A DNA stretch of 64,000 nucleotides from an uncultured Pelagibacteraceae bacterium. Lineage in GTDB: Bacteria; Pseudomonadota; Alphaproteobacteria; Pelagibacterales; Pelagibacteraceae. The notes below the pieces were generated by a model. The model made no database searches. It was not told where the DNA came from and was given only the letters and a program-made list of their open reading frames with translations. Positions 35,343-38,527 of the stretch are shown one piece after another. The stretch is from assembly GCA_902523895.1 (NCBI GenBank), contig CABZAZ010000002.1, positions 34,313 through 98,312 on the forward strand. Reading direction: 5' to 3'. The stretch's first letter is position 1; every line of letters starts with the position of its first letter. The translations under genes were made by a program, and so were the position numbers.

Positions 35343-37043
35343 ATGCAATTAAATAGAATAAATAGTTTAGTAGAACTTTTTTTTACAAAGTATAAAGAAA
35401 TAAACTCAGTTGCTGATAAGCCATTTTTAAAATGGTTGAAAGAAAACAAAAAAGATTTTTTGACTTGGGAGCAAGTTTCAACAAAAATTCAAATTTTATC
35501 TGAATATTTAAAAGCAAATTTATCGGATGGAGACCGATGTATCCTATTATCTGAAAATCGACCTGAGTGGCTTATCTCTGACATATCAATTATGAACGCA
35601 GGTGGGGTTACGGTGCCTTTATTTACAACTTATTCAGAGAAAGATTATGAATACATCATTAATGACTGTAAGCCAAAAATTTGTATCGTCTCCAATGAAA
35701 CCCAATTAAACAAAATAAAAAAATTTATCTCGGATGAAATAAAAGTTTTATCTATTGAAAACATAAATAGAAAAGTCGAGAATATAGAAAATATTTTCGA
35801 TGAATATTCTAAAAAAAAGAAATCAAGTACTGATTTAATTTTTAATCAAAACCTTGAAAGGAAAGATCTTGCTTGTATAATTTATACATCTGGAACAACT
35901 GGTAATCCTAAAGGAGTAATGCTCAGTCATGGAGGAATTCTATCAAATTGTGAGGGAGCTCAAGAAATATTAAATCAATTAGTTCAAAATAGTGAACCTA
36001 CTTTTTTAACATGGTTGCCTTTGTCTCATTCATATGAGCATGCAGTTCAATTTGTTCAAATCTCGTTTGGTGCAAAAATTTATTATGCTGAAAGTCTAGA
36101 GAAGTTATTATCCAACATGTCTATTGCAAAACCCACTATTATGACAGCAGTGCCAAGATTTTATCAAAATTTGTACAGTAAAATTTCAATGAATTTTTCA
36201 AAGCAAAAAGGTTTTAAGAAAAAACTGATATCTTCCACTATCTCAATTGGAACTAAAAAACTGAATGGTGGGAATTTAACGTTGAAAGAAAAATTAATTA
36301 ATTTTTTTTGTGAAAAACTGGTGAGAAAAAAGATTAAAAATCAATTTGGTGGAGAACTAAAGGCCTTTGTATCTGGGGGTGGCGCTTTGGACCAAAAAAT
36401 TGGAGAATTTTTAAATGCTATAGGATTGCCCACCCTCCAAGGCTACGGTCTTACCGAAGCCTCACCTGTGGTAAGTTGTAATATTCCAGGAAAAATCAAA
36501 ATCGAGACAGTTGGACCTCCTTTTAAAACAAATCAGGTAGATATAGCTGAGGATGGTGAAATTTTAGTCAAAGGTGAGAATGTAATGCTTGGTTATTGGA
36601 ACATGGAAAAAGAGACAGCCGATGTCATAAAGAATGGTTGGTTGCATACTGGTGATATTGGAGAGATTACACAAGATGGAAATTTAAAAATTACTGATAG
36701 AAAGAAAGAAATAATAGTTAGTCTTGGAGGAGACAACATTTCACCATCTAAAATTGAGAATTTATTATGTTTAAATGAAAAAATTAAACAAAGTTTTGTT
36801 TATGGAGATAAAAAAACTTATTTAGTTGCATTAATTGTTTCTGAAAGTAAAGAAAATAGAAAAAATATTGAAATTTATTTAGAAAACTTAAATAAAACTT
36901 TATCTTTAGTTGAAAAAGTTAAAAAATTTAAATTAATTGAAGAAGAATTTACAATTGACAATGGAATGTTAACACCAACATTGAAATTAAAAAGAAAAAA
37001 AATCTTAGACAAATATAAAGATGATTTGGAAAAACTTTATTAA
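35343..37043 (+). CDS. fadD: Long-chain-fatty-acid--CoA ligase
   Basis: IYTSGTTGNPKGVML, QGYGLTE, GWLHTGDIG, TPTLKLKR. Confidence 0.88.
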   Translation: MQLNRINSLVELFFTKYKEINSVADKPFLKWLKENKKDFLTWEQVSTKIQILSEYLKANLSDGDRCILLSENRPEWLISDISIMNAGGVTVPLFTTYSEKDYEYIINDCKPKICIVSNETQLNKIKKFISDEIKVLSIENINRKVENIENIFDEYSKKKKSSTDLIFNQNLERKDLACIIYTSGTTGNPKGVMLSHGGILSNCEGAQEILNQLVQNSEPTFLTWLPLSHSYEHAVQFVQISFGAKIYYAESLEKLLSNMSIAKPTIMTAVPRFYQNLYSKISMNFSKQKGFKKKLISSTISIGTKKLNGGNLTLKEKLINFFCEKLVRKKIKNQFGGELKAFVSGGGALDQKIGEFLNAIGLPTLQGYGLTEASPVVSCNIPGKIKIETVGPPFKTNQVDIAEDGEILVKGENVMLGYWNMEKETADVIKNGWLHTGDIGEITQDGNLKITDRKKEIIVSLGGDNISPSKIENLLCLNEKIKQSFVYGDKKTYLVALIVSESKENRKNIEIYLENLNKTLSLVEKVKKFKLIEEEFTIDNGMLTPTLKLKRKKILDKYKDDLEKLY

Positions 37044-37160
37044 ATTAATAAATTATTTGATTATAAAGCGCATAAACATTAACTTTTTTACACTTTAGAT
37101 TGTAAAAAAATTTTTATTTTAAATTTTATTTTTTTTAAAATTAAAACTTTAATTAAAGAA

Positions 37161-37189
37161 TTGACATAACGTATATAAAAAAATAAAAA
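37161..37189 (+). promoter_or_regulatory. Candidate sigma70 promoter for the basic-peptide gene
   Basis: Consensus TTGACA at 37161-37166; TAAAAA(T) 17 bp downstream; AT-rich upstream region. Confidence 0.6.
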
Positions 37190-37191
37190 TA

Positions 37192-37224
37192 AGTTAATTA
37201 CGAATCATTTTGATTCGTTTAACT
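37192..37224 (+). promoter_or_regulatory. 5'-leader inverted repeat containing two GANTC sites
   Basis: AGTTAA-tt-ACGAATCA-ttt-TGATTCGT-TTAACT. Confidence 0.7.
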
Positions 37225-37241
37225 AAAAAAGGGAGCTAAAG

Positions 37242-37319
37242 ATGCCTAAGAGAAGAAAAAAAGCAAAGAAGGCTAAGAAAAAAGCTAAGAAAAAAGCTAA
37301 AAAAAGAAGAAGAAGATAA
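37242..37319 (+). CDS. Unannotated 25-aa protamine/histone-H1-like basic peptide
   Basis: MPKRRKKAKKAKKKAKKKAKKRRRR; SD GGGAG 6 nt upstream; own promoter and terminator. Confidence 0.85.
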   Translation: MPKRRKKAKKAKKKAKKKAKKRRRR

Positions 37320-37337
37320 TAACTTAGTATTCTTTAT

Positions 37338-37382
37338 AAAAAACGCTTCTCATAACTTTATGTGTGAGAGGCGTTTTTTTTT
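37338..37382 (+). terminator. Intrinsic terminator (probably bidirectional) between basic peptide and carD
   Basis: A6-CGCTTCTCATA-loop-TGTGAGAGGCG-T9; two G:U pairs form only in the + strand RNA. Confidence 0.85.
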
Positions 37383-38244
37383 AATCCTCAATAGTCTCCT
37401 CTACTTCAGAAATCGAGTCTTCAACAGGTAATTCAGAACTTGTAGAAGATTTAGTGACTTTAGTTTCAGGTTGTTCCTCTTTTATTAAATTTCTTTTGAG
37501 AGCTTTATCTAACTTTTTTTGTGTTTCTTCTCTTGACACATTCAATACAATTTGAAACTCAGATAAAATTCTATCATAAGCTTTTTCAAAAAGTTGTCTT
37601 TCACTATAAGATTGATCAATCATTAAATCGTCACCTTTATTTAAATCTCTTACGACTTCTGCAAGTTCATAAATTTTACCTGATGAAATTTTCGCTTCAT
37701 ATTCTTGAGCTCTTCTACTCCACATTGATCTTTTGATTTTTGGTTTACTTTTTAAAATTGAAATACTTTTATTTACTTGATTAATTGTTGATAGAGGACG
37801 TAAATGCAATTGTTTATTTACTGGAACCATTCCGTTAGCTTTATCTTTCTCAAATTTAATAATATATGTCTCTACATCAATCCCACCAATATTTATTTTC
37901 TTAAATTCTGTAATTTGACCTACCCCATGTTTAGGATAAACAACATAATCTTTTATCTTGTATTCTCTTTTTTCAGTATTTTGTTTTTTTACTTTTTTTA
38001 TTTCTGGTTTAACTTCATTATTTTTGGAGATTCGAAGATTCTCTGATTTGGTCTCAATTTTCTTCTCTGCTTTAGTAGTTATTTTTTTTGTTAATTTTTT
38101 TGAGGTTTTTACAGATTTTATTATTTTAACCTTTTTTGACTTTAATTTTTTATTTTGTTTTTTTATTTTTTTTGAATTTGATTTTGGTTTAACTTTTTTT
38201 TTAAAGGTTTTCTTTAAAATACTTTTCAAACTTATTTTGCTCAT
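37381..38244 (-). CDS. carD: CarD/CdnL RNA-polymerase-binding factor with Lys-rich N-terminal extension
   Basis: [13 protein letters not shown], conserved W (MWSRR), [28 protein letters not shown]; start uncertain (38244, 38259 or 38286). Confidence 0.9.
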
Positions 38245-38527
38245 CTTTAAATTTTTCATGATCCGATGGGGGATCTTTTTTCTCATTTATATTAGGCCAG
38301 ATCTCAGAATATTGTTTATTGATATCAAGCCATTTTTCACTACCTGGTTCAGTATCTGCTTTTATTGCATCCACTGGACACTCAGGTTCACAAACGCCAC
38401 AATCTATACACTCATCAGGTTTAATTACAAGCATATTTTTTCCCTCGTAGAAACAATCTACCGGACACACTTCAACACAATCCATCAGCTTACATTTTAT
38501 GCATTTATCATTTACTATGTATGTCAT
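38201..38527 (-). CDS. fdxA: Ferredoxin FdxA (7Fe type)
   Basis: [46 protein letters not shown]. Confidence 0.96.

Follow-up and report, generated by a model that had tools for sequence, protein, structure and literature searches.

A conserved lysine-rich mini-gene facing carD in Pelagibacterales, with a putative GcrA box and a predicted antisense RNA, as a candidate nucleoid peptide gene

The interval between a fadD-like gene and carD in an uncultured Pelagibacteraceae bacterium is as roomy as a preliminary description of this DNA had held (337 bp, which ranks fifth in size among the 34 gaps left by a rough calling of ORFs), which raises the question of what it is spent on. That description had proposed a complete expression cassette for a stand-alone, protamine/H1-like peptide of 25 aa with either a nucleoid-condensing or a ribosome-associated role. 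Here we ask whether this is a gene, what may control it and which partner its product may bind. The window is the whole stretch of 64,000 nt that was analysed; it belongs to a 0.95-Mb, 79% complete genome (G000). Genera are numbered g1 to g10 below, f2 is a family, and C and L numbers denote contigs and loci.

A basic mini-gene and its conservation

The reading frame does translate into the K/R-rich, acid-free peptide that had been described (13 K, 6 R, 4 A, M and P), with the Shine-Dalgarno sequence (SD) 6 nt before the ATG (Table 1), and its K+R fraction of 0.76 ranks first among the 8,886 small ATG ORFs of the genome. RNA contigs of metatranscriptomes from four studies cover positions 37165-37368 in 4/4 runs, which were chosen for holding the gene and whose contigs give neither strand nor level and could stem from DNA. 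Contig depth over the gene is far above that of the flanks in three of the four runs, a kind of depth that cannot rank genes, and 37063-37164 is without cover in three of them.

Table 1. Features of the peptide locus and its predicted RNA partners (window coordinates unless a contig or locus is named)
Feature	Position	Strand	Remarks
-35 hexamer TTGACA	37161..37166	+	sequence; conservation
Weak -10 region, 17- or 18-nt spacer	37184..37190	+	
Putative GcrA/CcrM box 1, TGATTCG, about +9	37201..37207	-	kept order-wide
Putative GcrA/CcrM box 2, TGATTCG, about +19; same as 3' arm of leader hairpin	37211..37217	+	varies between genera
Core of 5' leader hairpin, extending to about 37192-37224	37200..37218	+	
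Shine-Dalgarno GGGAG	37231..37235	+	
Predicted rhtB RNA binding site	37231..37251	+	RNA at G000:C4:47852-47898, - strand
25-aa K/R/A peptide gene	37242..37319	+	second stop 37320-37322
Intrinsic terminator, likely bidirectional	37338..37382	+	folding; conservation
fadD-like AMP-binding enzyme, upstream neighbour	35343..37043	+	not conserved there in family f2
carD/cdnL, convergent neighbour in all genera	37381..38286	-	
g5 hairpin RNA, about 45 nt	L415:1493-1542	-	also L421, L422, L423, L445

Conservation was followed along three routes. A DNA-similarity search gave 30 loci, 28 of which span the site; all 28 hold an intact ORF of 21-30 aa, and the 11-mer from SD to ATG is invariant in these close relatives (28/28). 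Picking loci by carD only, an intact K/R/A(/P/T) gene faced carD at 26 of 27 loci, in all 10 Pelagibacterales genera sampled, the remaining locus stopping at a contig edge. A scan of GTDB genomes yielded at least 120 loci with a search pattern that fixed the box, the SD and the first codons, so that conservation is tested only by the remainder of the frame. Among the matches listed, 104 were intact, one was cut by a contig end, one (L181) had lost 1 nt in an A-run, and 14 were unrelated; the latter, considered as homologues, were dropped as chance matches. Frame and SD are thus kept across the order, part of the check that had been asked of this locus, and the feared frameshifts are absent from 104 of the 105 complete loci among the matches listed.

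The 104 listed loci encode 50 peptides of 19-44 aa built only from K, R, A, T, P, G, S and M (53% K, 22% R, 17% A). Overall, length ranges from 19 to 91 aa and changes by in-frame repeats, being 20-35 aa in g1, 21-24 in g8-g10, 31-32 in g6, 33-44 in g5 and 37-58 in g7, while the forms of family f2, at the same genomic place, reach about 76-91 aa with AAPKKK repeats. The gene contains A-runs of 6-10 nt, and its indels are nonetheless in frame; the distance from stop to terminator takes 12 values, most of which differ by non-multiples of three. Together, these patterns strongly support a conserved protein-coding mini-gene with the composition of a histone H1 tail, and we regard it as almost certain, judging from sequence, that the gene is real and translated.

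Several observations accompany this picture. The one-base loss in L181 (301-460) falls in the first A-run and may be a sequencing error or a true inactivation; locus L158 has a frameshift like it, the two being perhaps not independent and perhaps sequencing errors. The f2 forms (L111-L113, L115-L118) start with a conserved N-terminal extension of 9 residues, two of them acidic and three hydrophobic, whose first codons contain a purine run resembling an SD. In CarD itself (window:37980-38286, - strand), the N-terminus is extended by a long stretch rich in lysine, and the C-terminal tail is acidic.

Protein-similarity searches were uninformative owing to the low complexity of the peptide. Pfam, NCBIfam and PDB gave no family match for the peptide, and Pfam at E<=10 returned 0 families for the 25-aa form and five orthologues of 44-91 aa, a search whose HMMER bias filter makes it a weak test of low-complexity sequences. 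The ESM Atlas has the 84-aa form among its "hypothetical proteins"; the Atlas model of the peptide has a pLDDT of 0.41, and the nearest named cluster carries HC2 on 23% of its members with a score of 0.89, which is a lead only. Outside the order, 30 loci from further alphaproteobacterial families, taken from 30 of the 111 genomes that had a match, showed a basic small ORF near carD in 0/30 cases, and 24 of 24 viral matches, considered as phage copies, held neither the peptide gene nor the hairpin.

Promoter, leader hairpin and a putative GcrA box

With 3 promoter-like sites against 3.9 expected, a consensus scanner did no better than chance, and it found 0 terminators; the support for promoter and terminator therefore comes from folding and conservation. 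TTGACA is present as claimed, and TTGAC recurs in 103 of 104 orthologous loci among the matches listed, the exception being cut by a contig end; TAAAAA follows at 17 nt in 78 of these 103, and transcription is predicted to start near 37196. The leader stem-loop folds as claimed (z -3.9, equalled in 1 of 200 shuffles), and the 3' hairpin with its U9 tract has a z of -6.6 that 0/200 shuffles matched, with a terminator present in 102/104 orthologous loci among the matches listed. The preliminary description had the G:U pairs of this terminator form in the + strand RNA only; the + strand does fold better (-21.4 vs -15.1 kcal/mol), but the - strand also folds and ends in a U6 tail, and the element probably serves convergent carD too. 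The "complete" cassette is borne out by folding and conservation but not by the scanner, and its -10 hexamer is weak. A CarD-dependent "-7T-less" promoter was considered and dropped, the -10 hexamer being ambiguous and unlike between genera.

The 5' arm of the leader hairpin (CGAATC, box 1 on the other strand) stands 38-42 nt from the -35 in 26/26 of the carD-picked gene loci. The hairpin occurs in every genus, and the sequence of its 3' arm changes yet pairing remains; box 2, which lies in this arm, reads GATTCG in 81, GATTTG in 17 and otherwise in 5 of the 103 listed loci. TGATTCG is given as the consensus for GcrA on CcrM-methylated DNA (PMC4647560), with a working range of +5 to +30 (PMC9976885), and GANTC methylation is described as following the cell cycle in Pelagibacter (PMC9516812). 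Both gcrA and ccrM are encoded in G000, gcrA was found in 5/5 other genera, and a YGAKTCK box lies at +5 to +30 relative to the predicted start. The likeness to Caulobacter GcrA/CcrM promoters extends to the top-ranked TGATTCG, to this range and to the presence of two boxes as at mipZ; the string "hup" is absent from the main text of the Caulobacter study (PMC4647560). The leader element thus likely serves twice, as a box in DNA and as a hairpin in RNA, and we consider it likely that the GcrA box is functional.

In g5, g7 and f2, which have the longer peptides (L099-L101, L103, L104, L106, L107, L111-L118), a second predicted leader hairpin covers the SD, whereas nothing of the kind masks the SD in g1 and g8-g10. 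Such a hairpin could possibly provide control of translation in cis.

An rhtB-family RNA predicted to pair with the start site

A weak Rfam match on the opposite strand of the peptide locus led to a full member of the rhtB family (RF01814) elsewhere in the genome, on contig C4 (89.3 bits, cut-off 55). This family was described in 2009 by Meyer et al. (PMC2704228) as a hairpin whose loop is conserved, a possible rhtB-linked regulator or terminator for which that description gives no target, followed by a U-tract in about half of the motifs. The C4 element departs from the published rhtB motif by a promoter of its own, another gene downstream and a target predicted in trans; the 5' part of the Rfam model corresponds to promoter DNA. 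Just upstream of the 47-nt hairpin, on the antisense strand, an extended -10 occurs in 47 of 53 loci. A second copy of the SD/start motif in G000:C4, initially a candidate paralogous peptide gene, was rejected, since its ORF is unconserved (7-24 aa) and the motif lies on the strand opposite the rhtB RNA.

The loop of this RNA can form 14 perfect pairs over the SD and AUG of the peptide mRNA and, after one mismatch, 6 more. Among 17,238 starts, the peptide mRNA is its best trans partner, at -34.5 kcal/mol compared with -25.5 for the best of 40 shuffled loops. The RNA is present in 104 of 109 g1 genomes (the unpublished G118 included) and in 0 of 36 others, the syntenic gap in g8 and g10 being short and without hairpin. 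Hfq was found in 0/5 genomes. In 42 of the 104 listed loci, those starting ATGCCT, the mismatch at +4 is uncompensated. Because the RNA also pairs with start sites of genera that do not have it (g8, -34; g5, -29 to -32), part of the fit must be inherited. The metatranscriptome contigs, which give no strand, barely cover the rhtB RNA in 3/4 runs.

A further test is offered by the base directly before the AUG, which is A instead of G in 8 of the 104 listed loci; four of those eight genomes yielded the rhtB RNA, and all four carry U for C in it. Among 401 genomes of the genus, 16 have the A form (a 17th match was unrelated). Eleven of them, which may overlap the four just mentioned, hold both gene and RNA, and the two have changed together in 11/11, with 0 discordant cases; the other five (59-85% complete) hold one part only, the partner being absent in either form. 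A 60-row CarD tree, which draws on a single short gene from a group that recombines, requires 5 changes to explain the A state (bootstrap 4-5), and strong branches force at least 2 of them. The A state would thus have changed at least 2 times, and likely 4-5.

In g5, the start site differs and the rhtB RNA is absent. An unrelated hairpin RNA is encoded at another locus in 5 of 6 g5 genomes, flanked by DUF502 and cyclophilin-like genes, and TAGACA precedes it by 35-36 nt in 5/5. It has no match in Rfam, and it pairs with g5 start sites at -31 to -41 but with those of g1 only at -14 to -18. Genome G062 lacks the RNA at that locus, and its peptide start differs. Neither start-site patterns nor two syntenic loci revealed an antisense RNA in g6-g10 or f2, where a wobble-rich or divergent one could escape such a search.

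The rhtB RNA and its target thus display the sequence pattern of a trans-encoded antisense RNA of the IhtA type: a separate locus, an own promoter and complementarity to the start codon region that covaries. On these grounds it is very likely that the rhtB RNA represses translation of the peptide. If, on the contrary, the locus were a low-complexity A-rich spacer and the rhtB element a mere terminator or the relic of an inverted copy, the chance-level promoter scan, the frameshifts in L181 and L158 and the U-tract that Meyer et al. report for about half of the motifs would all fall into place. But such a spacer would not account for order-wide conservation of the frame, compensatory change, a second independent RNA or a promoter of the rhtB RNA's own, and we give it almost no credence.

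Some 30-40 nt upstream of the rhtB hairpin, loci L062-L091 share a conserved palindromic AT-rich motif with an ATGCA core, a candidate site for a regulator of the RNA. Searches of the open-access literature showed no account of the peptide gene or of a target of the rhtB RNA; Additional file 2 of Meyer et al., which lists coding sequences that had been missed, might name the ORF.

Links to HU, the probable ligand and related systems

Two kinds of signal connect the peptide gene with hupA, the gene for HU. First, a TGATTCG box stands 38-42 nt from the -35 of the hupA promoter in 11/11 genomes of g2-g7 (six genera), against 0/20 genomes of g1 and g8-g10 and a background of 26 in 1,021 starts; both orientations occur, as they should for a site that acts as DNA. 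Second, in pairing with the rhtB loop, hupA ranks 2 among 1,016 long-ORF starts, a rank that was 52 or worse in 40 shuffles. Its duplex of -21.5 equals the mean best match of shuffled loops (-21.7), and therefore one genome proves nothing. Across genomes, the start motif CYGGAGCTAAA is present in 162 of 186 g1 genomes versus 0 of 64 others, and it is fixed though its distance to the AUG varies, whereas the groES and groEL spacers vary freely; SD-anchored 11-mers come in 2 variants in 15 genomes for hupA, 7 in 16 for groES and 6 in 14 for groEL. Pairing with hupA is absent for the g5 RNA, and a single evolutionary event may underlie the restriction of the motif to g1. On balance, we lean towards hupA being a second target of the rhtB RNA. 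The best long-ORF partner of the loop is the start of a gene with a glutamate-synthase domain (PF01645; G000:C9:23412, +; L053), at -24.6, a match that recurs in many g1 genomes and may mark a third target.

These energies could also be read the other way round, namely that the transcript is an abundant sponge that titrates the rhtB RNA and frees hupA, the ORF being incidental; after all, the peptide site binds at -34.5, stronger than the hupA site. This is quite improbable given that nine genera lacking the rhtB RNA retain the ORF and that its indels stay in frame, and sponging may at most be a side effect in g1.

The model that we moderately favour instead is that of a cell-cycle-timed, antisense-repressed K/R/A polycation that coats DNA like a free histone H1 tail. 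A sigma70-type promoter with its TGATTCG box, a leader hairpin, an SD, an ORF and a terminator, all kept across the order, form the gene; GcrA acting on the CcrM-methylated box would tie its output to chromosome replication; and the 47-nt hairpin RNA, through an exposed anti-SD/anti-AUG loop and Hfq-free pairing over 14-20 nt, would very plausibly shut off initiation. With hupA perhaps also dampened by the rhtB RNA, the peptide and HU might make up one nucleoid module. The Arg-rich ends and the Lys/Ala middle would neutralise and bridge DNA, and if only charge and length count, repeats could come and go. Having no hydrophobic or acidic residue, the short forms should be able neither to fold nor to cross a membrane.

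Of the two roles originally proposed, the nucleoid one is favoured over the ribosomal one, since length varies from 19 to 91 aa by repeats, whereas a basic peptide of 27 aa in the same organisms is fixed, and since the gene shares regulatory signals with hupA. The 27-aa peptide (G000:C6:27680-27763, +; L387-L390) is near-fixed in sequence, has the same length in 5/5 genomes of 3 genera, was not found in one f2 genome and has no Pfam, NCBIfam or PDB match; it behaves like an unannotated small ribosomal protein. Free change of length argues for charge-based binding of a long polyanion rather than of a ribosomal pocket, as for Hc2 (PMC2848022), and the two separate links to HU together with a replication-coupled box point to DNA. 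DNA thus seems rather the likelier main ligand.

There is, nevertheless, a smaller but real chance that the gene and both its controls are as outlined and the peptide acts on RNA, be it as a general chaperone, as a ribosome-surface or hibernation factor or as a polyamine substitute. A polycation would be unable to tell DNA from RNA, and the short forms match small basic ribosomal proteins in size. Moreover, the KPAA repeats of Pseudomonas PhaF are described as binding mRNA (PMC12818456), and binding of DNA or RNA has been reported for HctA. However, a pocket-filling ribosomal protein, or one like the fixed 27-aa peptide, would not span an almost five-fold range of length; Pfam, NCBIfam and PDB gave no match; and the common signals are those of hupA, not of groES, groEL or csp. 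Binding or tethering of another polyanion, such as polyphosphate granules, has a parallel in H1-like AlgP, described as spacing such granules (PMC9239181), and a small nitrogen store would suit the 1.24 side-chain N per residue of the peptide (0.34 in the proteome); but a cell-cycle box and links to hupA would be unexpected for a store, and we hold both proposals to be improbable.

Carrying the DNA-coating model further, we tentatively envisage a free "H1 tail" that shrank during streamlining from about 90 residues to about 20 and that compacts the SAR11 chromosome as one module with HU, by way of a GcrA box in six genera and of Hfq-independent antisense in the main Pelagibacter genus, antisense control having arisen twice in SAR11 (rhtB and g5) and separately in Chlamydia. 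If true, this would bear on nucleoid compaction in SAR11 and add a hidden nucleoid protein to a dominant ocean bacterial group, hidden in that trypsin would shred it and that none of 10 orthologue sequences is present among 15 billion called proteins. The rhtB family, an orphan since 2009, would gain a target and a mechanism within a trans-acting sRNA circuit in bacteria with Hfq found in none of five genomes; the natural allele pairs make the claimed RNA target directly testable, and concrete GcrA targets would be offered for study of the SAR11 cell cycle.

Protamines are arginine-dominated; in the SAR11 peptide lysine outweighs arginine, so that of the "protamine/H1-like" label the H1-tail half holds and the protamine half is limited to size and net charge. 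The small basic ribosomal proteins eL41, bS22/mS38 and bTHX have a fixed length and sequence; the peptide resembles them, too, in size and net charge, but its length is not fixed and it matches no such family or PDB entry. Type I toxin-antitoxin systems comprise a hydrophobic membrane peptide and a linked antisense RNA in a patchy distribution, and this class was rejected, as there is no hydrophobic stretch, the RNA is unlinked and the gene is order-wide. A winged-helix globular domain like that of linker histone H1 did not emerge for the peptide, which has no Pfam or PDB match and an Atlas model of low confidence. With Hc2 (HctB) and the KPAA tails of AlgP and PhaF it shares K/A/P repeats and a size that varies with repeat number (PMC2848022, PMC9239181, PMC12818456), the repeats being free of acidic residues except for two in the f2 N-terminal extension; unlike them, it is much shorter and stand-alone, has Arg clusters at both ends and does not match Pfam HC2. 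The closest parallel in design is Chlamydia HctA (Hc1), an H1-like protein whose translation is blocked by the trans sRNA IhtA, with its loop over the AUG and more than one target (PMC3469542, PMC4355289). Both systems combine a basic H1-like protein with a separately encoded RNA over the AUG and more than one target, predicted in our case. They differ in that the SAR11 peptide, of 19-91 aa, has no sequence match to Hc1, in that pairing spans 14-20 nt including the SD, whereas that of IhtA is described as spanning about 7 nt without use of the SD, and in that free-living SAR11 adds a GcrA box and HU as a predicted second target. Thus, the SAR11 peptide would work like HctA under IhtA while not being a member of that family by sequence.
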